DNA from: a virus | Lineage: Duplodnaviria > Heunggongvirae > Uroviricota > Caudoviricetes | DNA length: 9,491 nt | Direction: 5' to 3' (one strand) | Virus record (IMG/VR): IMGVR_UViG_2547132272_000017 | Coordinates: 1 to 9,491 of that record | Shown here: positions 1 to 9,491 of the stretch, in pieces | Numbering within the stretch: the stretch's first letter is position 1 | How the letters are laid out: the number at the start of each line of letters is the position of its first letter | Position numbers and translations under genes: made by a program | Notes under the pieces: model-generated | Seen by the model: only the letters and a program-made list of their open reading frames with translations | The model's database searches: none | What the model was told of the DNA's origin: nothing

Positions 1-91
1 ACTCTCCAGGAAACCCGGGGCGGTTCAGTTGTTCCGCCTGTCGCAACATTTCCTGTGCCTGTTTACGTAATTGTTCAGGGGTAAAAGTCAT
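1..91 (-). CDS. Partial ORF (N-terminus only; continues past the left window edge), hypothetical protein
   Basis: ATG at 91..89 on the minus strand, 11 nt after the helicase stop (TGA, 105..103). Reverse complement of 1-91 is open and reads MTFTPEQLRKQAQEMLRQAEQLNRPGFPGE. No clear Shine-Dalgarno; only 30 codons visible. Confidence 0.25.
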   Translation of the reverse strand, partial: MTFTPEQLRKQAQEMLRQAEQLNRPGFPGE

Positions 92-102
92 TGTCTGGTT
101 GT

Positions 103-1494
103 TCAAAAGAAACGCTCCATCTTACTGCTGTCAGTTCGTTTGTTGCTGTATCTGCGCGGCTGAGGCTGCTGCATTGGGGTGGAAAGAATCTGTGCGCTTT
201 CCTGATCCACAGGCAGAAAATGTCCGTTATAAAAACGCCGATAAATCGTCCCCAGAGAACCGTTACGTTGTTTCGTGATATTGATTTCTGCGATGCCCCT
301 GGCCTGCGTATCCGGGTTGTACACTTCATCCCTGTAAAGCATCAGAATGATGTCTGCATCCGCCTCTATTTCTCCGGAATTTTTCAGGTCTGAGTTCATG
401 GGGCGTTTATTGGGCCTGGACTCCACACCGCGGGAGAGCTGACTCAGCGCAATCAACGGAAAACCACCGGATTTTGCCAGGCCTTTAAGCCCCTTTGAGA
501 TTTCACCAACGGCAAGGTCATGACGCCCTGTGGTTCGGGTTTTTATCAGCCCGAGATAATCAACCACCACCAGCGCCGTTTCCGGATGTTTAATCAGGTG
601 ATGTTTCGTTGTTGCGCATATCTCATCAATGGTCAGGTTCGCCTGGTCCACCATCCAGATATTGCGCCCGGTCATCCGCCCCACTCCTTGTGAGAAACGT
701 GCCCAGTCTTCGTCTTCAAAGTGAGTGACAGATTTCAGGCGTGATACCGGCATTCCTCCAGCCGCAGATACCATGCGTTCACCAATCTGGATGTTCGCCA
801 TTTCCATTGTGAACAGAAGAACACCATGCCCCTGCTCAGTCACCTTGTCGATGATATCCAGCGCCAGTTCGGTTTTGCCCATCGAAGGACGTGCAGCAAT
901 AAATACCAGGTCGCCAGGCTCCATGCCGCCCGTTTTTGCGTCCAGTTCATCAATACCGGTCATCAACGTCCTGGATTTCTCCAGCCCCTGATTCCGGCAT
1001 TCAACACGCTCAACCACTTCCGGAAGCACATCATCAATATGTACCGGCTGAATAACGCCCTTTTCCGTCGACAATGAGGCCATCATGTTCTGCGCATCCT
1101 TCAGAGCATCTTCAGCTGCTTCACAGGTATGCGCATCACGTAATTTCTGCAGCGCCTCATTCAGTGTTTTTTCTGCATCACGCAATGCGGCATTACGCCG
1201 CAACGCCGTAACATAGTGCTCCAGTGACGACTTCACCCAGGTTTTGCGCCCGGTATCAGTAATCACCGGGGCAAGTTCCGGCATCTCATTACACAACAGC
1301 ACAGGGTCAATCACGCCGGACACACGGGCCTGTCTGCAGATGCCTGTGTAGATATCCCGGTACGGTCGTACAGAAAAAACGTCCGCCGGTAGTGTGGCCA
1401 GAATATCCATCACTTCAGGATCTGCCCCTCGCAGAAAAAACGCGCCAATGACAGCGCCTTCCAGGTCATCGTTACGCCAGACAGGAGAAGTCAT
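103..1494 (-). CDS. DnaB-family replicative DNA helicase (phage-encoded)
   Basis: Long ORF with Walker A motif (ARPSMGKTELALD) and overall DnaB-like RecA-fold layout. Start placed at the ATG at 1494 (MTSPVWRND...), preceded by GGAGG and overlapping the upstream gene's stop as ATGA. The ORF track's start at 1533 is a TTG without an RBS. Confidence 0.85.
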   Translation of the reverse strand: MTSPVWRNDDLEGAVIGAFFLRGADPEVMDILATLPADVFSVRPYRDIYTGICRQARVSGVIDPVLLCNEMPELAPVITDTGRKTWVKSSLEHYVTALRRNAALRDAEKTLNEALQKLRDAHTCEAAEDALKDAQNMMASLSTEKGVIQPVHIDDVLPEVVERVECRNQGLEKSRTLMTGIDELDAKTGGMEPGDLVFIAARPSMGKTELALDIIDKVTEQGHGVLLFTMEMANIQIGERMVSAAGGMPVSRLKSVTHFEDEDWARFSQGVGRMTGRNIWMVDQANLTIDEICATTKHHLIKHPETALVVVDYLGLIKTRTTGRHDLAVGEISKGLKGLAKSGGFPLIALSQLSRGVESRPNKRPMNSDLKNSGEIEADADIILMLYRDEVYNPDTQARGIAEINITKQRNGSLGTIYRRFYNGHFLPVDQESAQILSTPMQQPQPRRYSNKRTDSSKMERFF

Positions 1495-2381
1495 GCTGCC
1501 ACACCTCCGATATGTGCACGGTAACTTTCCCAACCAAACACCAGGCAGTTACGCCCACCATCAGTAACGCGATCCACAATCCGTTCACCAATGGACTCCT
1601 TAAGTTGGTCAAATGTCAGATTACTAATCAAAATTGTCGGTAAAACGCTTTCGTAACGTGCATTGATGATTTCCTGCAGGATGGTTATCTCTGTTGGCGT
1701 ACCGAACTGCACACCAACCTCATCGATGATGAGCAGGTCCAGCGATACAAAATGGTCAATAACTTCATCTTCAGTGCGTTCAGAATTGTGACGCCAGGTA
1801 TTTTTCACAGCGCGGGTCAGTCGCATGACATCCGTAATTTCGACAGTCGCCAGGTGGTGGCGAATAATATTTTTTGCCATTGATACAGCCAGGTGATTTT
1901 TCCCGGTACCGCAATTGCCAATCATGATCATGCTGGTACCCGCAGCAAGACACTTCTCCCATGAACTGGCATAGCGCCGACAAGCCTCAAGATTTCTCTG
2001 TGCGTCAGCATTCACAGCCTGGTAGTTCTCAAACTCGCAGTCCTGGAAGCGGCGGGCAATACCAGCTCTGTCAAGTAATTCATGAACTTTCAGGATGCGT
2101 AACGCCTCCTGTACCTGATCCAGTTCATTCGCAATGCAGGTCGGGCAACCAGACACCCGTTTGATGGTTTCCCCACGAACATCTGGCCCTTTCAACACCA
2201 GACGTGTGTATTTCCCGTGTTTCTCACACTCAGCAGTTTCCTCGCTTGTCAGCCAGTGTTCACAGCGCCACGGACGCTTCCCGGCACGGGCAAACTGCAT
2301 CTCCTCCTCCAGTTCCGCCCTGCGGTTGAGCAATTGCGCTTTATCGTGTTGTGCGTAGTGTTTTTTTAACTGTTCAAACAT
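1491..2381 (-). CDS. DnaC/IstB-like AAA+ ATPase, putative helicase loader / replication protein
   Basis: Walker A (GNCGTGKNHLA) and Walker B (LLIIDEVG) motifs. Cys-rich N-terminal region (RCEHW, ECEKHG, GCPTC). SD GAGGTGA 7 nt upstream of the ATG at 2381. Stop overlaps the helicase start (ATGA). Confidence 0.8.
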   Translation of the reverse strand: MFEQLKKHYAQHDKAQLLNRRAELEEEMQFARAGKRPWRCEHWLTSEETAECEKHGKYTRLVLKGPDVRGETIKRVSGCPTCIANELDQVQEALRILKVHELLDRAGIARRFQDCEFENYQAVNADAQRNLEACRRYASSWEKCLAAGTSMIMIGNCGTGKNHLAVSMAKNIIRHHLATVEITDVMRLTRAVKNTWRHNSERTEDEVIDHFVSLDLLIIDEVGVQFGTPTEITILQEIINARYESVLPTILISNLTFDQLKESIGERIVDRVTDGGRNCLVFGWESYRAHIGGVAA

Positions 2382-2400
2382 TGTTCATCACCTCGAAAAA

Positions 2401-3378
2401 TCACCAGTTGAAGTTCGTTGAACCGTAGTCCTGCTCACTGAATCCCGAGATCGGGAGGCCGGTAGTTCGCCCACCTCCGGGAGCGGCTGGCTGTTGCCAG
2501 GATTCCTCGAAATGGCGATCGGGTCCAAAGAACGTCGCGGCCTGCTTCACGAACTGTGTGCCTGTATTTCCTGTAGCACGTACCCAGGCGGCATACCGCT
2601 TCACACCATCAAGCATGGTCTCCGGTTTTATTCCCTCCCTGATACGGGCTTTCCAGGCTTTGAAGGCTGCTGACTTGGAATTGCCACCAGCACGTTTGGG
2701 ATATTCCTGCCAGGCCTGTTCAAATTCCGGTGAATATTCCTGTCGGGCAGAACGCGCTGGTGCAGACGCGTCAGCGGATGCGCCAATAGTGTTTTTAGTC
2801 TCCGTTGTAATCTCTGTAGTAATCTCTGTATTTGTATCAACATTCGGCGTATCCCCTGTTCCGTTATGACGTTGGGGGGTGTTCCGTTTTAACGTAATAG
2901 CTGTATCGCTGATTGCGTTATTGCTGTTACTTTCTGGCGAAACAGAAGAAGGAGTAGTAATGGCAGCAATTGCCTGTGGGTTGATCCCGACAAACAAAAT
3001 ATTGCTGCATTTCACACCATCGAGCATTTCCACCGTGCGTAAATCCAGGGAAATAAACCCGGCATCACGAAGGCGCTTCAACGCATCCGCGGTTTCCCTT
3101 TTCCCGAAACCAAACTGCTCAGCAAACGCCTGATAACTTCTTTGCAGCTTGTCCCCCTGAAAACGCTTGCGATATCCCAGCAAAGCCCCGGTATGCTCAT
3201 CCCTGACTTCTGTCGGGCGGTACCAGTAAACGATCTCTGAGAGCAGGGCGATAGCGGTCGCATCCGGACGACCACTGGGTAGCCGAATATGTTTCCACCA
3301 GTTCGCTGGTGTGACATTGCCGGAAATATTAATTTGACCAATAGCTATAACTTCCGGTGTGGGGGCGTAACGACTCAT
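2401..3378 (-). CDS. Phage replication initiation / replisome-organiser protein (O-like)
   Basis: 325-aa ORF immediately upstream of the DnaC-like and DnaB-like genes, with a strong SD (AAGGAGG). N-terminal region resembles phage replisome-organiser proteins; a low-complexity linker (TEITTEITTE) separates it from a C-terminal domain. Assignment rests on position and architecture, not on a searched match. Confidence 0.6.
   Translation of the reverse strand: MSRYAPTPEVIAIGQINISGNVTPANWWKHIRLPSGRPDATAIALLSEIVYWYRPTEVRDEHTGALLGYRKRFQGDKLQRSYQAFAEQFGFGKRETADALKRLRDAGFISLDLRTVEMLDGVKCSNILFVGINPQAIAAITTPSSVSPESNSNNAISDTAITLKRNTPQRHNGTGDTPNVDTNTEITTEITTETKNTIGASADASAPARSARQEYSPEFEQAWQEYPKRAGGNSKSAAFKAWKARIREGIKPETMLDGVKRYAAWVRATGNTGTQFVKQAATFFGPDRHFEESWQQPAAPGGGRTTGLPISGFSEQDYGSTNFNW
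2807..2830. repeat. Perfect tandem 12-bp direct repeat (gtaatctctgta x2) inside the O-like gene
   Basis: Read directly: 2807-2818 and 2819-2830 are identical, followed by a partial third unit (tttgta). Encodes the TEITTEIT linker on the minus strand. Confidence 0.7.
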
Positions 3379-3674
3379 ACAGCCTCCTTACGCGGCATAA
3401 CAATGGTGTAACCCCGGGCAGGCTGGAGCCGGGCTTTTGCATCAATAGTGAGCGTTGCAATTTTTCGGATACGCAGATACCCTGCCCTTTCCAGGGTCAG
3501 GGTTTCTCTGAACATTGCCTGTTTTGAACAGCAACAAAAATCGGCAAGGACCTGGTGATCAATAACCCTCTCACCTTCACCGTCTGAAGAACCCGACATC
3601 AAAACACGCAACATAATCAGGCGCTGAATCGGATTATCGAAAACACTTCCGCATACAAACTGAAAACAGTTCAC
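3375..3674 (-). CDS. Hypothetical protein (99 aa, GTG start)
   Basis: GTG start at 3674 preceded by GGGAGG at good spacing. Start overlaps the upstream stop (GTGA) and the stop overlaps the O-like start (ATGA). The C-terminal half (QVLADFCCCSKQAMFRETLTLERAGYLRIRK) may be a winged-helix-like segment; this is unverified. Confidence 0.5.
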   Translation of the reverse strand: MNCFQFVCGSVFDNPIQRLIMLRVLMSGSSDGEGERVIDHQVLADFCCCSKQAMFRETLTLERAGYLRIRKIATLTIDAKARLQPARGYTIVMPRKEAV

Positions 3675-3895
3675 ACGGCACCTCCCAGGCGTTTAAACAT
3701 TTTTCCGGACTGAAACGCCACCAGTGGGTAACTGATGGTGTAGTTACGCCCCAGTAATTCACACACGACTTTCTGGCTTTCGGTACTGACCAGGCAAACC
3801 CGCAGAACATGGCCGTTGCTGGTGGCAAACCACTGCCCCACACGGGGGCAACGGTTGTATCGGTGATACAGGGAATTAACGACGCGGCGAATCAT
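3671..3895 (-). CDS. Hypothetical protein (74 aa; alternative start at 3910 would give 79 aa)
   Basis: ATG at 3895 overlaps the stop of the upstream 220-aa gene (ATGA), indicating translational coupling. No recognisable domain. Confidence 0.45.
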   Translation of the reverse strand: MIRRVVNSLYHRYNRCPRVGQWFATSNGHVLRVCLVSTESQKVVCELLGRNYTISYPLVAFQSGKMFKRLGGAV

Positions 3896-4554
3896 GGGCG
3901 CACTTCCCATTGATTACGGCGGAAAGCAGTGTGATTCAGGCTGGTTTCAGCCTCATGGAATGCTTCAATGCAGCTCTCGTAGTACCGCATTGTGCGCAGA
4001 CTTAACCCAAGCTGAAGCATCATCAGACCATCAAGGGTGATGTAATAACCACGCAGGGAATCGCCATACACGTGGTAAGTACCCGGAATGAAATTACGGG
4101 AGAAGAATTCACGTGAGCAGTTCAGATACTCGATTTTGTCGACGATGTTCTGGTGCATGCGCTTAAAGTGGCAGGCAACATGCAGGGAGAAAATAACAGC
4201 TTTGCCGTTGACGACTTCGATTTTCAGGTATGGGGAAGTTGGGACTGTAGCCATGATGGCAGCCTCCGTATGCAATGGATAACTTCCACCACCGGAAACG
4301 CCAATTTCACTGGTGGTGAACTGAACGGGGTTGGCGTAACCGGCGCATACGGAAACCGGCGCATCTTTCGATGCCCCCGCCCAGCCCACCATAATCTGGA
4401 TGTGAGCAAATGCGGACGATAAAAAAGACGCTGGCGCGTCGTATATCGCCGTATGCAATTCCAGGACGCCAATCCCGGCACCCGCTTTATAAGGTGCCAG
4501 AACAGTGTAACGTCCCGAAATTGCAGAATCAATATTTAGGCTTGAAACATTCAT
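3892..4554 (-). CDS. Hypothetical protein (220 aa)
   Basis: Longest ORF in this interval, on the same strand as the flanking operon; ORFs in other frames are shorter shadows. No clear SD upstream of the ATG at 4554 and no recognised motif. Confidence 0.55.
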   Translation of the reverse strand: MNVSSLNIDSAISGRYTVLAPYKAGAGIGVLELHTAIYDAPASFLSSAFAHIQIMVGWAGASKDAPVSVCAGYANPVQFTTSEIGVSGGGSYPLHTEAAIMATVPTSPYLKIEVVNGKAVIFSLHVACHFKRMHQNIVDKIEYLNCSREFFSRNFIPGTYHVYGDSLRGYYITLDGLMMLQLGLSLRTMRYYESCIEAFHEAETSLNHTAFRRNQWEVRP

Positions 4555-4631
4555 ATGCTTACTGGTATTTTTGTTGACGTTCTTGGATTCTTGGGCCTGC
4601 TTTATGCAGTTGCCTGTATCAACGTTGAGCG

Positions 4632-4657
4632 AGCCGGGTTACTACCCGGCTTTTTTT
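4632..4657 (+). terminator. Intrinsic terminator-type hairpin (8-bp GC-rich stem AGCCGGGT/ACCCGGCT, 4-nt loop) followed by T7 on the + strand
   Basis: Read directly: stem 4632-4639 / 4644-4651, T-run 4651-4657. Canonical for + strand transcription; on the minus strand it sits immediately after the Rha stop codon, preceded by an A-tract with no U-tract after it. Confidence 0.6.
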
Positions 4658-5388
4658 CACCGCTGCCAACCAATAACCTGAAATAACCCCATTTTCGGGT
4701 GATACCAGCGAGTCCCTCGCGGTTCTGCTTCCTCCATAACCCGATAAAAAGCAGCCATAAACGGTTCCACAGCAACAATTGCGCGACGTGACAACAATCC
4801 GTCCGGCGTCATGAACTCATGGGTGTCTGTAGGAATTTGATAGGCGTTCACCAGATTGCGGCATTTATCATCTGACAAACCGGTTTTTGCTTTCAGTTGG
4901 CGATATCCGGCATAGCCCTCACGAATGGTGCCCTTTTTGATTTGCTCAACTGTTTCGGCAACATGGCTGACTTTTTCTTCCACCTGAGTGATCCGTTTCT
5001 GCTGGCGAACAGCTTCAAGAGCCATCGCTGCAACCATTTCGATTTCGCTCATTGGCTTACGGATCTGTTCTTCCAGTTCGCGCCAGCGATCTACCAGGCG
5101 AGCAGTGAATTCAGGACAGAGCTGTGCGACGACAATGATGCTGTCGCGCTTACCTTGTTCTCCTTCAAACAGGTAATGCTCATATTGAACTTTAAAACCT
5201 AAGTTATTGATTCTTTCGGAAACCTCAATTTGAGGAGACCGGACAACGCCACCTTTGGCTAATGTTTCAATAGTGCGTTTCACATTGTCATGACGTTTAC
5301 CCACCAGCTCTGCGATTTCAACGCTGGTCATGGATACTTTGTCGTTAAAAATTGCAGCGTTCATTGTTGCCTCTTTACGAAAAACCAT
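4657..5388 (-). CDS. rha: Rha-family phage regulatory protein
   Basis: N-terminal signature SMTSVEIAELVGKRHDNVKRTIETL is typical of the Rha domain. Two candidate in-frame starts, ATG 5388 (SD AGAGG) and ATG 5364 (SD AAAGAGG); the longer is annotated. Confidence 0.8.
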   Translation of the reverse strand: MVFRKEATMNAAIFNDKVSMTSVEIAELVGKRHDNVKRTIETLAKGGVVRSPQIEVSERINNLGFKVQYEHYLFEGEQGKRDSIIVVAQLCPEFTARLVDRWRELEEQIRKPMSEIEMVAAMALEAVRQQKRITQVEEKVSHVAETVEQIKKGTIREGYAGYRQLKAKTGLSDDKCRNLVNAYQIPTDTHEFMTPDGLLSRRAIVAVEPFMAAFYRVMEEAEPRGTRWYHPKMGLFQVIGWQR

Positions 5389-5433
5389 GATTAACCTCTA
5401 GCTTTCCCCGTCTTTTCCGCACTTCTTGTACGG

Positions 5434-5442
5434 TGATATTAT
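5434..5442 (+). promoter_or_regulatory. Extended -10-like element TGaTATTAT, candidate promoter for the + strand gene at 5536
   Basis: Sequence TGATATTAT sits about 95 nt upstream of the ATG at 5536. The -35 is weak (tttccg). It lies in the 147-bp divergent spacer between the Rha start and the + strand gene. Confidence 0.3.
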
Positions 5443-5535
5443 TCAGTGCCGGATGCTTACCCGTGTCCGGCGCACGACCACACGTAGCCGCGTGTTGGTC
5501 TCCATTTTCAATTCAGCTCTCAATGGAGGATAAAA

Positions 5536-5781
5536 ATGTCAAATACCCAACATCTAAAAGCGGCGGATCCCGTTTTACGCCTCAATGCACTTGAAACGGT
5601 TGTTCGGGCGATGCTGTCGAGCATGACACCCGAGCAAATAAACAAAGCGCGATTGATTGCTACTCGTGGTGCCCAATTAGCAGCCCTAGATCCATTGCTC
5701 ACTCCTGCGAATCGCGAAGATGTAGAGCACATTCAGGGGATGGTTGATTATTTATTCGCCCATATTCCTGATCAGATTTGA
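5536..5781 (+). CDS. Hypothetical protein (81 aa), convergent with cro, inside the rightward early region
   Basis: Strong SD GGAGGA 5 nt before the ATG at 5536. Protein-like composition (MSNTQHLKAADPVLRLNALETVVRAML...). A hairpin plus T-rich tract lies downstream. The antisense ORF 5520..5732 has biased Ser/Ala/Arg content typical of a shadow frame. Confidence 0.55.
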   Translation: MSNTQHLKAADPVLRLNALETVVRAMLSSMTPEQINKARLIATRGAQLAALDPLLTPANREDVEHIQGMVDYLFAHIPDQI

Positions 5782-5813
5782 TTCTTTGAACCATAATTTC
5801 AGCGATACGAATG

Positions 5814-5844
5814 GCCGCCGCTTCGAGCCTGGCGGCTTCTTTAT
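5814..5844 (+). terminator. Hairpin (GCCGCC / GGCGGC stem, 11-nt loop) followed by TTCTTTAT, between convergent genes
   Basis: Stem 5814-5819 / 5831-5836 read directly, T-rich tract 5837-5844. Lies 33 nt after the + gene stop and 27 nt after the cro stop on the other strand. Confidence 0.4.
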
Positions 5845-5862
5845 CTGCATAAGAGCTACCCA

Positions 5863-6108
5863 TCACTTCTCGTCCTCTGTGTGCGCTAAGCTTGGGTGTG
5901 GAAAAAGCTCTGGTAGGTCTGGACGAAATTCATACGCTTGGATCTTTCCGTCGACAGCTGCAACCAATAACGGCACAAATTCTGGTGAAATCTTGTTCTT
6001 GCAGTTCAACCAATCGCAGACTGTTGACTGGGCCTTTCCGCATCGCTTGGCTAAGGCTTGCTGACTTCCAAGAATCTCAATAGCTTTCTCTATGGCTTTA
6101 TGTTTCAT
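5863..6108 (-). CDS. cro: Cro-like HTH regulator (YdaS-type)
   Basis: Divergent from the cI-like gene across the operator region. Pattern AIEKAIEILGSQQALAKRCGKAQSTVCDWL...EFRPD matches the YdaS/Cro-like HTH family. Start set at ATG 6108 (MKHKAIEK...) with SD AGGAGA; the ORF track's longer start lacks an RBS. Confidence 0.75.
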   Translation of the reverse strand: MKHKAIEKAIEILGSQQALAKRCGKAQSTVCDWLNCKNKISPEFVPLLVAAVDGKIQAYEFRPDLPELFPHPSLAHTEDEK

Positions 6109-6227
6109 AATCGCATCTCCTATTGAACGCATAATAACAACAGGAAAAGCGATATTCAACGTTAAACCTAGAACATTTATCGGAAAGCCGATAGACTAGC
6201 CAGGATAGAGAGGGGAGGAAAATCGCA
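6109..6227. promoter_or_regulatory. Divergent control region (OR analogue) between cro and cI, with operator-like sites
   Basis: 119-bp spacer between the divergent HTH genes. Contains the palindrome TATCGGAAAGCCGATA (6178-6193) and weaker related copies at 6109-6124 and 6139-6154 (core ATCG-N6-CGAT). Confidence 0.7.
6131..6159 (-). promoter_or_regulatory. PR-like sigma70 promoter for cro (-35 TTGAAT, 17-bp spacer, -10 TATTAT, minus strand)
   Basis: Minus-strand reading: -35 is the complement of 6154-6159, -10 the complement of 6131-6136. This leaves a leader of about 16 nt carrying the cro SD. Confidence 0.5.
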
Positions 6228-6920
6228 ATGACATTTTCAGAACGACTTGATTTAGCTATGCGCAACGCAAAATTTACGCAAGGTAGGCTGGCCAAAGAAG
6301 TGGGTATGGCTCAGTCCAGTGTCAATCAACTACTTAACAAAGCCAACGGTTCCAGAAAAACAGTCGAAATAGCAAAAGTTTTGGGCGTTAACCCGGAATG
6401 GCTCGCATCGGGTGTTGGCCCAATGGAAATCGTGACCTCTGCAGACTCACACCAAATACGTAACATTTCTGAAGATTGGGTTACTGATTCGTATGTCGTG
6501 GATGTTTTAGACATCAGATATAGTTGCGGACCTGGTAGTTATAACTCTGATTTTCCTGACATTGTCAGATCTATAGCGATAGAACCAGGATACGCATCAA
6601 GAGTTTTTGGCGGCAGGCCAGCATCAGCAATCAAAGCAATAAACGCCCACGGCGACAGTATGAAAGGCACAATAGACCCTGAAGACTTGGTATTTGTAGA
6701 TGTATCAGTTCGCACATTTAATGGTGATGGTATATACGCCTTTACATACTCTGGAACATCGCACATCAAAAGACTTCAAAAAATCAAAGATACTCTAACG
6801 GTGATATCTGACAACCCAGCTTACAAGGATTGGGCTATCGAACCGGAAGACTTCGAACAACTTCACATTGACGGAAAAGTAATTGTCAGTTGGCCCATGA
6901 CACTACACCGTTTTGCATAA
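6228..6920 (+). CDS. cI: CI-like prophage repressor: N-terminal HTH plus C-terminal LexA/S24-type autopeptidase
   Basis: HTH (FTQGRLAKEVGMAQSSVNQLL); S24 motifs GDSM with a Lys about 38 residues downstream (HIKRL); possible Ala-Gly-type cleavage region (LASGVG). SD GGAGG 10 nt upstream of the ATG. Confidence 0.9.
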   Translation: MTFSERLDLAMRNAKFTQGRLAKEVGMAQSSVNQLLNKANGSRKTVEIAKVLGVNPEWLASGVGPMEIVTSADSHQIRNISEDWVTDSYVVDVLDIRYSCGPGSYNSDFPDIVRSIAIEPGYASRVFGGRPASAIKAINAHGDSMKGTIDPEDLVFVDVSVRTFNGDGIYAFTYSGTSHIKRLQKIKDTLTVISDNPAYKDWAIEPEDFEQLHIDGKVIVSWPMTLHRFA

Positions 6921-6938
6921 GCAAAAATCATTTAACCC

Positions 6939-6964
6939 GCCCACTCTTAAGTGGGCTTTTTTTT
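6939..6964 (+). terminator. Rho-independent terminator after cI (stem GCCCACT / AGTGGGC, loop CTTA, T8)
   Basis: Read directly: stem 6939-6945 / 6950-6956, T-run 6957-6964, 19 nt after the cI stop. Confidence 0.8.
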
Positions 6965-6971
6965 GGAAAAA

Positions 6972-7012
6972 AATCGATAAACCGATTGACAGACAAAATC
7001 GGCAAACCTATT
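6972..7012. promoter_or_regulatory. Two operator-like sites (OL analogue) overlapping the PL-like promoter
   Basis: AATCGATAAACCGATT (6972-6987, overlaps the -35) and AATCGGCAAACCTATT (6997-7012, overlaps the -10) share the core ATCG-N6-C(G/T)AT with the OR palindrome. Centre-to-centre spacing is 25 bp. Confidence 0.55.
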
Positions 7013-7014
7013 AT
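6986..7014 (+). promoter_or_regulatory. Near-consensus sigma70 promoter (TTGACA, 17 bp, TATTAT): PL analogue
   Basis: -35 TTGACA at 6986-6991, 17-bp spacer, -10 TATTAT at 7009-7014; about 50 nt upstream of the ATG at 7064. Confidence 0.7.
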
Positions 7015-7063
7015 CATGGCATAGGTATCGAACTCACCAAAGCAATTATAGAGGATGAGAAAA

Positions 7064-7561
7064 ATGTCATCGTATATGGGGTTACCAACAAATCAGCACG
7101 ATGCTCTTGAGAATATTCAACTCTTAGTAGGGGCTGGTGCACTACTGTATAGCAGCAATAATCCTGAGTTAATTGAACTTGCCAGCTCCATCCTGGCTGT
7201 AACTCAAAAATACAGCCTCACCGCGTCGCGTTTATGCAAACAAAATTTAGCTATTAATTCCCAGAATCGGATTCGCACCCAACGCGAAGCCTGCGGCTTA
7301 ACAACCGCCGAACTCGCCAGGCTGCTCGATCTCGATGAAGAAATTATCATCCAGTGGGAGAGCGGAGAGTATGAACCAACTATCAGTATGCTTATCCCAC
7401 TGGCAAATATTCTTGGCTGCGATCCGATGTGGCTGTTAACTGGCGAAGTTACTCCTCCGGAGCAACCAAAAAGTGAGGAGCAGCAACACCATGACGCATC
7501 TCAACAAGTTTGCTCCTTATCTCGCGAAGCTCTTCTACGGAAGAACCAATACCAATGGTGA
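7064..7561 (+). CDS. XRE-family HTH protein with an uncharacterised N-terminal region (166 aa); first gene of the leftward operon
   Basis: SD GAGGA 8 nt before the ATG at 7064. HTH_XRE signature in the C-terminal half (IRTQREACGLTTAELARLLDLDEEIIIQWESGEYEPTISMLIPLANILG). No Arg-rich N-type motif. Confidence 0.7.
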   Translation: MSSYMGLPTNQHDALENIQLLVGAGALLYSSNNPELIELASSILAVTQKYSLTASRLCKQNLAINSQNRIRTQREACGLTTAELARLLDLDEEIIIQWESGEYEPTISMLIPLANILGCDPMWLLTGEVTPPEQPKSEEQQHHDASQQVCSLSREALLRKNQYQW

Positions 7562-7689
7562 CATAATCGCCGCTTCGCCCCTCAAGGTACATGCGAACAT
7601 TTTTATCAATCATTGCGGAAACAGTCTCAATATGAAAACACTTCTGAGACTCGCTATATAGCAGAACATATAAGTCAGCTGAGGAAGCC

Positions 7690-8055
7690 ATGAAAAAGTT
7701 CGAAAACATAACTGTTCTCCATGTTGATGACTTTGATTATACAAACCCGGAACCTCTCCCGGAGGTTGTAAAGGCAATAGATGTTGCCGATATAGTGATT
7801 AGAGGAAAGAGAATTGTCAAAAACAGGCTCGCATGCACTTCAGGAGCAATGACAAAAACAACCTCACAACAAGATGATTATGAAGGCATTTGTCTGGAGC
7901 CGGACTCATTTGCGGTAAATGTTTATCATTTATTGCATGCAACACAGGTATTACATATGTCCAGTAATCACGAAACAAAAACACTTGGCAGCGAAATTCT
8001 GAATTTTGCATGTGAATATGCAAAAGCTGCTGCCGAAAAAGAATTAGCGCAATAA
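7690..8055 (+). CDS. Hypothetical protein (121 aa)
   Basis: ATG at 7690 preceded by GAGGA. AT-rich codon usage matching the neighbouring + strand genes. No recognised motif. Confidence 0.6.
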   Translation: MKKFENITVLHVDDFDYTNPEPLPEVVKAIDVADIVIRGKRIVKNRLACTSGAMTKTTSQQDDYEGICLEPDSFAVNVYHLLHATQVLHMSSNHETKTLGSEILNFACEYAKAAAEKELAQ

Positions 8056-8253
8056 CAACAAATATGCCATGAACGTTTATTACGGTTTTATCGCCGGGGA
8101 TTGTTGCAACCTTTATTCATAGAGGTAACTCAGTTATGACTTTCCTGAAAAATAAGGCATCGTATAAAACTGCCTGCCTCATTGCACAACATGGAGATTC
8201 TTATCTTCATATAGCCAACCTGTATTTGCGCAAAGCATATGGGAGATAAATAA

Positions 8254-8442
8254 ATGAAAGAAAAACAACAGAACATAACACATGAAAAAGTAAGAGTGTT
8301 GTTGACCATTGAAAATGGGAAAGTGATTTACTCAAAACATCTGTCGGATGATGAATTCGTTGGCTGCATGGATACATTTCTGTGGATGGTAAAAAGAGCG
8401 GGTTACACGATTATTCCACCAGCAAAGGAACAAACATTATGA
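8254..8442 (+). CDS. Hypothetical small protein (62 aa), translationally coupled to the downstream gene
   Basis: SD GGGAGA 7 nt before the ATG at 8254. Stop TGA overlaps the next ATG (ATGA at 8439-8442). Confidence 0.55.
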   Translation: MKEKQQNITHEKVRVLLTIENGKVIYSKHLSDDEFVGCMDTFLWMVKRAGYTIIPPAKEQTL

Positions 8443-9020
8443 ATTATTCAGAGTTCCGACCAGAAGTTACGCCACATGGCATAAAAATTGGCAATACAAC
8501 CATTGATTATGTTGAGGCCGTACAGCGACTTAATGATGGTGAATACGATTATCCAAACTCACACGGTTTAAGAATCATGCAATGTATTGCTGAAGCCGAT
8601 GATGCAGGGTTGCTGGGACGATTTTCAGTCGATATGAAAGTTGCTCAATGGCGATGGCTGTATGTGACTACGTTTATAAATGAAGAGAAAGACAAGAACG
8701 GTACCGTTGATATCCCTAACGATAATGGAACTACAGATCGCGCAGTTATTTACAAGGGGAAACATGGTTGCCTGAGTATCTACCCCGGACCACTTCGCAT
8801 TGCCCTGCAAAACCATGTCGAATGGGGATTTATTGAAAAATATGGCGAAGCTGAAGGCATGGGGCGAGTTCTGTTTCTCTATCAAAAAATGCTCATCGCA
8901 GATCCTGATAATGGTTTCATTATCTCTGCTATGGGGCGCGAAGGGCTTGAACTCCTTCTGGATGAAATGATTCACGATCTGAATACTCATGGTATGCCAG
9001 AAGCGCCAGTGACACATTAA
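8439..9020 (+). CDS. Hypothetical protein (193 aa)
   Basis: ATG at 8439 with SD AAGGAA 8 nt upstream and ATGA overlap with the 62-aa gene. The ORF track's longer form starts at a GTG (8382) with no RBS. Soluble-looking, no recognised catalytic motif. Confidence 0.65.
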   Translation: MNYSEFRPEVTPHGIKIGNTTIDYVEAVQRLNDGEYDYPNSHGLRIMQCIAEADDAGLLGRFSVDMKVAQWRWLYVTTFINEEKDKNGTVDIPNDNGTTDRAVIYKGKHGCLSIYPGPLRIALQNHVEWGFIEKYGEAEGMGRVLFLYQKMLIADPDNGFIISAMGREGLELLLDEMIHDLNTHGMPEAPVTH

Positions 9021-9027
9021 ATATTAA

Positions 9028-9052
9028 GAAGAATATAATTCTTCCGTTTTTT
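9028..9052 (+). terminator. Candidate intrinsic terminator (AT-rich 7-bp stem GAAGAAT / ATTCTTC, loop ATA, T6)
   Basis: Read directly, 8 nt after the stop of the 193-aa gene. The stem is weak (two G-C pairs), so efficiency is uncertain. Confidence 0.45.
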
Positions 9053-9065
9053 ACTAACCGTTTAT

Positions 9066-9173
9066 ATGAAAAGCAACCGTGAATTAAGCAGAGTAAAACT
9101 GATTTTAATCCTTGCCACAGTGCTGACACTAACTGAAATCATTATTCTCTTTATTGCGCTGTCAGTCGGTTAA
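9066..9173 (+). CDS. Candidate small hydrophobic peptide (35 aa, single predicted transmembrane helix)
   Basis: ATG at 9066; MKSNRELSRVK followed by a hydrophobic stretch (LILILATVLTLTEIIILFIALSV). No SD; below the ORF-track size cutoff. Confidence 0.25.
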   Translation: MKSNRELSRVKLILILATVLTLTEIIILFIALSVG

Positions 9174-9196
9174 AAATATCGGGATACCACAGACCA

Positions 9197-9385
9197 ATGA
9201 GACTGTATTTCACAATAGTAATTTTACTGGCAATTATCGCATGCATTTACGGATTACTCGTTCCGTTCCTTATATCCATGAAGGATACGATAGCAGTTAT
9301 TTCTGGCTTTGCACTGGCGTTTCTGACCCCGCCCTGCATTTATGCCATTTACAAGGGTCTTTCTTTCACTAAGGATAAAAGATGA
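9197..9385 (+). CDS. Small membrane protein (62 aa, two predicted transmembrane segments, charged C-terminus)
   Basis: Hydrophobic segments FTIVILLAIIACIYGLLVPFLI and IAVISGFALAFLTPPCIYAIY. Weak SD. Stop overlaps the next ATG (ATGA). Confidence 0.5.
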   Translation: MRLYFTIVILLAIIACIYGLLVPFLISMKDTIAVISGFALAFLTPPCIYAIYKGLSFTKDKR

Positions 9386-9477
9386 AAAAAATTATTTTTG
9401 CTTTAGCCATTGTTCTGCCGACTATTGGCCTTGTCGGTTGCGATCGCGTTGAACCAGGTAATGGCTTTGTTGAATAA
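9382..9477 (+). CDS. Tiny putative lipoprotein precursor (31 aa; signal peptide plus lipobox LVGC)
   Basis: SD AAGGA 6 nt before the ATG at 9382. MKKIIFALAIVLPTIGLVG|CDRVEPGNGFVE: n-region, h-region and lipobox Cys at residue 20. ATGA-coupled to the upstream membrane-protein ORF. Confidence 0.4.
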   Translation: MKKIIFALAIVLPTIGLVGCDRVEPGNGFVE

Positions 9478-9491
9478 ATCGAACTTTTGCT

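Follow-up and report, generated by a model that had tools for sequence, protein, structure and literature searches.

A predicted hairpin–helix-turn-helix regulator occupies the N position in the left operon of phiP27-type lambdoid prophages

Results

The DNA analysed here is a 9,491-nt stretch (positions 1 to 9,491) of the IMG/VR virus record IMGVR_UViG_2547132272_000017, referred to throughout as the window. Judged by its genes, it is the immunity and early region of a phiP27-type lambdoid prophage of Escherichia coli. Our subject is the open reading frame (ORF) at 7064-7561, the plus-strand gene that follows the immunity repressor gene cI in the slot where an N-type antiterminator is expected. 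An earlier note on this DNA had assigned its product a C-terminal XRE-type helix-turn-helix (HTH) domain preceded by about 60 residues of unknown function, and had suggested that the prophage either does without N-type antitermination or carries a second DNA-binding regulator, perhaps an anti-repressor. We identify a real gene for an uncharacterised HTH protein, with a predicted two-helix hairpin module in front of an acidic HTH domain and with a gene for a related hairpin next to it. Coordinates of all features are collected in Table 1.

The reading frame is open from ATG 7055 or ATG 7064 to a TGA at 7559-7561. We prefer ATG 7064, which gives a protein of 165 aa: the sequence GAGGA (7051-7055) lies 8 nt upstream, and both database proteins and PGAP models start with MSSYMGL. 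Comparison with four relatives reveals an excess of third-position substitutions in the N module and in the HTH domain, indicating purifying selection on the gene. The protein has a pI of 4.72. An AlphaFold2 (AF2) monomer model, built from a 24-sequence alignment and reaching a mean predicted local distance difference test score (pLDDT) of 69, makes residues 11-126 helical (pLDDT 61-94) and divides the chain into a two-helix hairpin (11-29 and 34-66, pLDDT 70-85), a five-helix HTH domain (69-126, pLDDT 81-94) and a largely low-confidence or disordered tail.

For residues 1-65, the description of an unknown region holds in that no family in Pfam or NCBIfam matches them; it needs amending in that they belong to a recognisable small domain family, phrog_4587, with a paralogue in the next gene. 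A fold search of PDB and BFVD aimed at the hairpin returned matches to the HTH domain only, with poor full-length superpositions (root-mean-square deviation, rmsd, > 6 Å). Run against 1.84 billion representative proteins, the hairpin profile reached only 26 clusters at E ≤ 0.001, none of known function. They comprise hairpin-HTH proteins, 120-aa partners, stand-alone hairpins of 60-90 aa and one hairpin fused to a cI-type HTH. The hairpin domain is narrowly distributed and undescribed in Pfam.

The XRE-type HTH is confirmed by Pfam HTH_3 (43.7 bits against a cut-off of 23, E 2.8e-11), which covers residues 70-124 counted from ATG 7064, or 73-127 in the 168-aa reading. Its closest solved relative is the N-terminal domain of P22 C2 (phmmer E 3.8e-6, 33% identity); Foldseek superposes the model on 3jxb_C (P22 c2) with an rmsd of 0.8 Å over 63 columns and a TM score of 0.90 normalised to the target. 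Residues 66-127 have the five-helix fold of the DNA-binding domains of the P22 C2 and 434 cI-Cro type. Unlike in P22 C2, the domain stands C-terminal of a putative oligomerisation module rather than at the N-terminus, is followed by no S24 or other C-terminal domain, and belongs to a protein that is not the immunity repressor, that role falling to the upstream gene. The two also differ in charge, with a net -6 here and +5 in the P22 C2 N-terminal domain, and a Glu-Glu pair opens the recognition helix here.

Most relatives (216-258 aa) carry two HTH domains, the first ending in GCDPLSLL and the second in CDP(M/I)WLLTG. Because the single HTH of ORF 7064-7561 ends in GCDPMWLLTG, like the second domain of these relatives, the gene is a deletion form fused between the repeats. 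One-HTH forms are common, occurring as clusters of 136, 151, 165 and 167 aa in tens to hundreds of contigs and with at least six hairpin types; this abundance and the third-position substitution excess indicate that they are probably functional. At the DNA level, the HTH-coding stretch 7270-7430 shares 92-94% identity with genes of phi467 and several Stx2a phages that differ elsewhere, being the sole segment to match, and it behaves as a mosaic junction or recombination linker.

The hairpin is found a second time in the neighbouring plus-strand gene at 7690-8055, whose product resembles phiP27 L08. The family phrog_4587 matches both the hairpin of the HTH protein (3.6e-7) and the C-terminal half of the neighbour (1.6e-28), and BLASTP aligns the neighbour with the N module at E 0.002. 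We compared the window with 84 related loci, made up of 4 annotated records and 80 IMG/VR contigs. A hidden Markov model of the hairpin picks out exactly two ORFs, the HTH gene and the next gene on the same strand, in 82 of these 85 sequences; two of the three exceptions are contig ends. The same gene pair is present with four additional hairpin types that were examined outside the 84 loci. For the neighbour, PGAP annotates only a 68-aa version in the nearest complete genome (locus L001, 13651-13857). The longer reading of 121 aa is preceded by a good Shine-Dalgarno sequence (GAGGAAG, about 7681-7687), and its N-terminal half is conserved at the protein level in the divergent relative P0156.

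The 84 loci contain five unrelated-looking clusters of N modules and five clusters of upstream repressors, and the two pair perfectly 1:1 (R1-N1 34 loci, R2-N2 26, R3-N3 22, R4-N4 and R5-N5 one each). The four further hairpin types, checked singly, each follow a distinct repressor with no more than 50% identity to the others, which brings the overall number to at least nine. A search of 5,426 complete E. coli genomes found the cI of the window in 25, the N3 hairpin in 25 when ≥ 80% coverage was required, and the joined segment in 25. Cro co-varies with the repressor, and Rha, beyond cro, is conserved. On the other side, the HTH domain is 90-100% identical across all immunity types in the 84 loci, and C-terminal tails and downstream genes mix freely with immunity type. 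Since the hairpin varies with the repressor and the HTH is conserved, we place the left junction of the immunity cassette inside the HTH gene, at the border between hairpin and HTH.

The pairing has a simple physical explanation. Hairpin coding starts 143 bp after the cI stop codon with no conserved DNA between, so linkage alone predicts a 1:1 relationship, and the hairpins, at 6-30% identity, have diverged about as much as cI and cro have. As far as these alignments go, the pairing is compatible with a repressor-specific function, and physical linkage explains it equally well. The paired repressors themselves are heterogeneous. In four of the nine immunity types they lack Peptidase_S24 (L037 3201-3749, L085 2470-2856, L087 2433-2888 and L092 2483-2875) and share a C-terminal motif, L(F/I)xx(L/M)Pxx(E/V), with a helical stretch after it; induction would require an anti-repressor in these types. 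One 24-kb contig, IMGVR_UViG_2681813321_000026, holds two R3/N3 repressor-HTH modules about 10 kb apart (L016, 3448-11825, and L017, 13416-21793), a duplication that would reflect either a tandem prophage or an assembly artefact of duplicated sequence.

ORF 7064-7561 reads as the first gene of a cI-controlled PL-like operon, because the terminator of cI is followed by a promoter that carries operator palindromes of the OR type. The promoter, which lies 3' of that terminator, is the top promoter-like site within 5800-9491. The exact motif ATCG-N6-CGAT has only two copies in the 9.5-kb window, one in the cro/cI intergenic region (OR) and one abutting the -35 hexamer; a further copy with one mismatch lies between -35 and -10. 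The sites at 6973-7011 also form an 18-nt direct repeat, D2, with a spacing of 25 nt. With a promoter matching 11 of 12 consensus positions, a cI terminator and shared operators, the earlier placement of the ORF as first gene after a PL-like promoter stands at the sequence level. Four other immunity types have an equivalent promoter in the interval from repressor to HTH gene, and every immunity type has a promoter and palindromes of its own between repressor and hairpin. No LexA box was found at the promoter; the six window-wide against 2.8 expected are not clearly above chance, since 10 of 200 shuffles reach six.

The product resembles lambda N and HK022 Nun in being encoded by the first gene 3' of a repressor-controlled leftward promoter and in having a phage-specific N-terminal part. 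The likeness does not extend to the protein: N and Nun are small, basic and disordered, whereas this one is predicted to be folded, is acidic, and has no Arg-rich motif (ARM), no boxA or boxB and no family match. As the earlier note had stated, the N-terminus is not rich in Arg. Residues 1-30 contain none and residues 1-65 a single one (net charge -1), against five Arg and a net charge of +4 in residues 1-30 of lambda N. No antitermination family, and hence nothing N-like or Nun-like, appears among the Pfam (E ≤ 0.1), PHROG and NCBIfam (E ≤ 0.01) matches. Pfam and NCBIfam return transcription-regulator families, generic Cro/C1-type HTH ones among them, and, weakly, DUF4447 and Tap; the PHROG matches are families of transcription regulation or unknown function.

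Nor does the surrounding DNA point to antitermination. A boxA search (YGCTCTTWA, at most one mismatch) gave nine matches against 6.4 expected, none of them exact, which is chance level, and an Rfam search of 5800-9491 at E ≤ 1 gave only a sub-threshold Trp_leader match that is the cI terminator. When ORFs of 60-200 aa from the window and from L001, the nearest complete prophage, were scanned, no real gene showed an Arg-rich N-terminus, and the only hits were out-of-frame ORFs inside real genes. L001 has no annotated N and no strong intrinsic terminator from its PL-like promoter to int. We rejected an N/Nun identity on motif, charge, fold, profile searches and the boxA and ARM scans. Of the two possibilities raised earlier, the lack of N-type antitermination is the better supported, with no ARM, no N match and no annotated N in L001, and on these sequence features phiP27-like phages appear to do without it in the left operon.

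Other memberships fared no better. The best NCBIfam match, the DicA subfamily NF007257, scores 46.9 bits against a cut-off of 101 and aligns with the HTH alone (residues 68-142); DicA of the Qin prophage is likewise a prophage HTH regulator, but it is the immunity repressor of its own element, which this protein is not. Pfam Phage_CII gives no match at E ≤ 0.1. Lambda CII is also an early-made HTH protein, but ours is encoded in the left operon after cI, not in the right operon after cro, and differs in architecture and charge. Peptidase_S24, the mark of an autocleavable repressor of the LexA/cI type, is absent from ORF 7064-7561 and present in 6228-6920. Among defence regulators, the PADLOC models RmrA, CapH, HTH_VI and PDC-M64B match the generic HTH region only, and none of five scanned neighbours matches, so we rejected these as well. 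By its sequence, then, the product qualifies neither as an antiterminator of the N/Nun type nor as a homologue of lambda CII.

The 3' end of the gene differs from the earlier picture. Its last 38 codons (7445-7558) are not conserved in the family; relatives carry three unrelated tails (T1-T3) whose assortment is independent of immunity type, and pLDDT falls below 50 at residues 131-152 and 160-165. A convergent minus-strand gene overlaps the final 37 codons and the stop codon. Relative to L022, which is 80.6% identical without gaps, substitutions in 7452-7691 are distributed over the codon positions as 16/11/31 in the antisense frame and 16/31/11 in the tail frame, and L022 has stop codons in the tail's frame. 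From the codon-position pattern and these stops we infer that the antisense gene is under selection and that residues 128-165 are read-through. The tail as a functional extension of the protein was rejected on the same two grounds together with independent assortment and low pLDDT.

The convergent gene occurs only in loci that have tail T1 or the divergent L004/L022 version. Where it is missing, the hairpin-only partner usually abuts or overlaps the stop of the HTH gene (4 to 46 nt in 15 loci). From gene order, the convergent gene looks like an optional insert into a two-gene unit of HTH gene and paralogue. At CATG (7689-7692), its alternative start codon overlaps the start codon of the paralogue.

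The family of ORF 7064-7561 is seen here in Escherichia and Shigella. Near-identical proteins stand in public databases under generic names only and belong to the PHROGs groups phrog_4739 and phrog_4836; one phage record labels a homologue 'DicA', and the few 'CII' or 'DicA' labels rest on similarity only. At least 319 of the 5,426 E. coli genomes contain sequence that matches 6200-8100 at least in part. The order cro / repressor, promoter, hairpin-HTH gene, hairpin-only gene and, further on, xis and int is found in phiP27, Stx2_95, ASU11, the nearest E. coli chromosome, the 80 IMG/VR loci and 8 more contigs. Taken alone, an HTH protein in the N slot is nothing unusual among phages of the phiP27 type. 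New findings of the present analysis are the domain map, the linkage of the hairpin to immunity type, its hairpin-only paralogue, the acidity of the HTH, the origin of the one-HTH form by deletion and the convergent gene that overlaps the 3' end.

Table 1. Features of the prophage window, in order of position
Feature	Positions	Strand	Basis or remarks
DnaB	103-1533	minus	
DnaC-like loader	1491-2381	minus	
O-like initiator, 325 aa	2401-3378	minus	
Ash/Rha protein	3892-4554	minus	
Rha/Ant-like protein	4657-5388	minus	
YdaS-type Cro	ORF 5863-6159, start probably 6108	minus	
Operator-like palindrome ATCGGAAAGCCGAT, cro/cI intergenic region (OR)	6179-6192		Exact ATCG-N6-CGAT
cI-type immunity repressor, HTH + Peptidase_S24, type R3	6228-6920	plus	Pfam Peptidase_S24 7.5e-17; phrog_4 1.4e-53
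Intrinsic terminator after cI	6939-6964	plus	7-bp stem (6939-6956), 5 GC pairs, T8
Operator-like sites ATCGATAAACCGAT and ATCGGCAAACCTAT, bracketing the -35 hexamer	6973-6986 and 6998-7011		Same motif as OR
PL-like sigma-70 promoter, TTGACA(6986)-17-TATTAT(7014)	6986-7014	plus	11/12 consensus positions
Two-helix hairpin module, aa 1-65, type N3	7064-7258	plus	AF2 helices 11-29, 34-66; phrog_4587 3.6e-7
Cro/C1 (XRE) HTH, aa 66-127, net -6	7259-7444	plus	Pfam HTH_3 2.8e-11
Variable tail, aa 128-165 + stop	7445-7561	plus	pLDDT mostly < 50; substitutions vs L022 14/24/10 by codon position
Conserved convergent small gene, 80-86 aa, phrog_6104	7449-7709	minus	phrog_6104 9.6e-50
Hairpin-only paralogue, phiP27 L08-like, 121 aa; hairpin aa 57-121 (7858-8052)	7690-8055	plus	phrog_5451 1.4e-81; phrog_4587 1.6e-28

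Discussion

We propose, with a probability of about 0.4, that ORF 7064-7561 encodes an early regulator that dimerises through its hairpin, acts on a target common to all immunity types and is modulated by its paralogue through hairpin pairing. On this proposal, inactivation of cI would let the promoter at 6986-7014 fire, so that the HTH protein is made early. Two hairpins would associate as a four-helix bundle, and the resulting dimer would have two HTH domains, or four in most relatives, since these have kept the second HTH. The dimer would then serve as an early transcription regulator; that its target is shared by all immunity types is suggested by the 90-100% conservation of the HTH, which the hairpin does not have.

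The role proposed for the neighbour follows an analogy. In the SinR/SinI pair of Bacillus subtilis, as in SlrR/SlrA, hairpins heterodimerise and the small protein antagonises the regulator. SinR/SinI works like the arrangement found here in that an XRE HTH is joined to a two-helix hairpin and an adjacent gene encodes a homologous hairpin alone, and the hairpin-only neighbour plausibly pairs with the hairpin of the regulator and modulates it as SinI does SinR. The comparison is one of architecture, with no homology claimed. The domain order is reversed, with the hairpin first. Unlike SinI, the partner here has 121 aa, including an additional N-terminal half, although relatives have versions of 60-80 aa. 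It shows no co-variation with hairpin type.

Several observations weigh against this proposal. The partner is 93-98% conserved across immunity types, whereas the hairpin of the regulator changes completely, and a search for co-variation between hairpin type and partner found none, which weakens the case for a specific pairing. Dimerisation is predicted from a model of the monomer, whose confidence is moderate (mean pLDDT 69). DNA binding by the HTH is not to be assumed, because the domain is acidic: it has a net charge of -6, a pI of 4.2, no Lys and two Glu at the start of the recognition helix, where the HTH of the phage's own cI has a net charge of +4. In the conserved left arm (7400-9491), short inverted repeats neither stand out nor recur, so that no binding site for the conserved HTH emerged. 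In the literature searched, neither phiP27 L10 nor any relative was the subject of a functional study.

As an unlikely alternative, the protein could be an anti-repressor or commitment factor specific to the immunity type, an idea with circumstantial backing in the pairing of hairpin and repressor types. The hairpin would recognise the cognate repressor, or Cro, and the derepressed gene would lock in lytic growth. Such a role would fit the strict pairing of nine hairpin types with nine repressors (84 + 4 loci, and 25 of 25 complete genomes) alongside an HTH and left arm common to all, an HTH whose acidity is atypical of a DNA binder, and several paired repressors that would need a protein antagonist for want of the S24 autocleavage domain. 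The model for this role is MOR of the lactococcal phage TP901-1, a small single-domain HTH protein. MOR is of the XRE-HTH type, is encoded by the first gene of the CI-repressed early lytic operon, as is the protein here, and inactivates CI by direct binding (PMC11149083, PMC7250872). However, similarity to MOR is limited to the generic HTH; the MOR gene is divergent from cI, in the Cro position, and MOR lacks a hairpin module, while the locus here has a separate Cro. Against this alternative also stand the 143-bp linkage, which by itself yields the pairing, the comparable divergence of hairpin, cI and cro, and the presence at the locus of a YdaS-type Cro and Rha/Ash antirepressor-like genes.

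That the protein is a CII-like activator of lysogeny, made early and switching on the repressor and integrase promoters in place of a lambda-type cII, we regard as distinctly unlikely. In its favour, no lambda CII homologue lies among the right-operon genes from cro to the replication genes, the gene shares an operon with xis and int, and a phrog_4836 match at 3e-51 bears the name 'CII-like regulator'. The authors of the ASU11 study label their homologue 'putative CII repressor' (PMC9751135), but that label comes from homology detection by BLASTp and HHpred. Besides the missing Phage_CII match, the position in the left operon rather than after cro, and an acidic HTH where CII is basic, argue otherwise, and no repeated CII-box-like motif was found.

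A wider version of the anti-repressor idea, about as improbable as the CII-like activator, would make the hairpin-HTH protein and its hairpin-only neighbour an undescribed third component of the lambdoid switch, an immunity-specific commitment module in the N slot. Through protein contact, its hairpin would tell the cognate repressor, or Cro, from others, with the paralogue tuning the module in the manner of SinI; the conserved acidic HTH would act on a target common to the immunity types or bind no DNA.

Two further explanations are very unlikely. The first, an accessory or defence regulator (moron) expressed in the lysogen like the HTH regulators of the CapH, BrxR or RmrA type, draws on the PADLOC matches (4e-9 to 1e-2) and on a downstream region of small unknowns, a membrane protein and an SPFH lipoprotein. 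The matches are confined to the generic HTH (residues 46-152, mostly about 66-135), and the position of the gene relative to the immunity switch is fixed in every locus. With immunity operators at the promoter and a separate terminator behind cI, the gene should not be expressed in the lysogen. The second takes the one-HTH form for a decaying deletion derivative without function. The GCDPMWLLTG end, which points to deletion between repeats, and the read-through tail would suit a remnant, but the frequency of such forms, their spread over at least six hairpin types and the third-position excess in both domains speak for a maintained gene. Finally, a non-homologous analogue of N or Nun, modifying RNA polymerase for read-through or termination downstream, is barely credible: the position of the gene and an N-terminal module that recalls the ARM of N in being phage-specific are set against a folded, acidic protein without ARM or N-family match, boxA at chance level, no Rfam match beyond the cI terminator and no strong terminator from PL to int in L001.

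Prophages of the phiP27 type include phages converting to Shiga toxin (Stx) types Stx1, Stx2a, Stx2d and Stx2e, and stx is co-transcribed with late genes, which ties induction to Shiga-toxin expression (PMC8065619). If the first early-left gene is a component of the switch, it would affect prophage induction and thereby be linked to toxin expression. If it encodes just another XRE regulator, the analysis provides useful annotation, namely a domain map, a corrected 3' end and an overlapping gene.

Additional observations on the window

The closest complete genome, NZ_CP141863 (locus L001), is 98% identical across 6200-8100. Its leftward operon extends to xis and int and its rightward operon to a Q-type antitermination gene; the layout of the window recurs in phiP27, in ASU11 (an O80 Stx2d phage) and in Stx2_95 (a Stx2a phage). 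PGAP names a 98%-identical relative of cI (6228-6920) 'LexA family transcriptional regulator'. Downstream of the HTH gene, on the plus strand, follow small genes homologous to phiP27 L08, L07 and L06 and a membrane-protein gene.

In the right arm, about 475 bp (5389-5862) separate cro from the Rha gene in the window, while the two genes overlap by 4 nt in L001. The extra DNA holds a plus-strand ORF of 81 aa (5536-5781), followed by a terminator-like hairpin at 5817-5836. The ORF has no match in Pfam or PHROG and may be a small moron. The replication initiator looks split into a 99-aa ORF (3375-3674, minus), whose match to a replication-initiation PHROG is confined to the N-terminal part (positions 3-93 of 223), and the 325-aa O-like ORF (2401-3378); its counterpart in L001 is annotated as an incomplete pseudogene.

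At the other edge, an SPFH/Band_7 lipoprotein gene starts at 9384 with the lipobox LVGC and departs from its L001 homologue at about 9464. Copies of the window's final 31 nt number 5,861 across 1,460 E. coli genomes, on chromosomes as well as plasmids, with as many as 47 in a single genome. Going by this copy number, the window ends in the terminus of a multicopy insertion sequence that truncates the SPFH/Band_7 gene, presumably one resembling the terminal repeat of the IS903 group.

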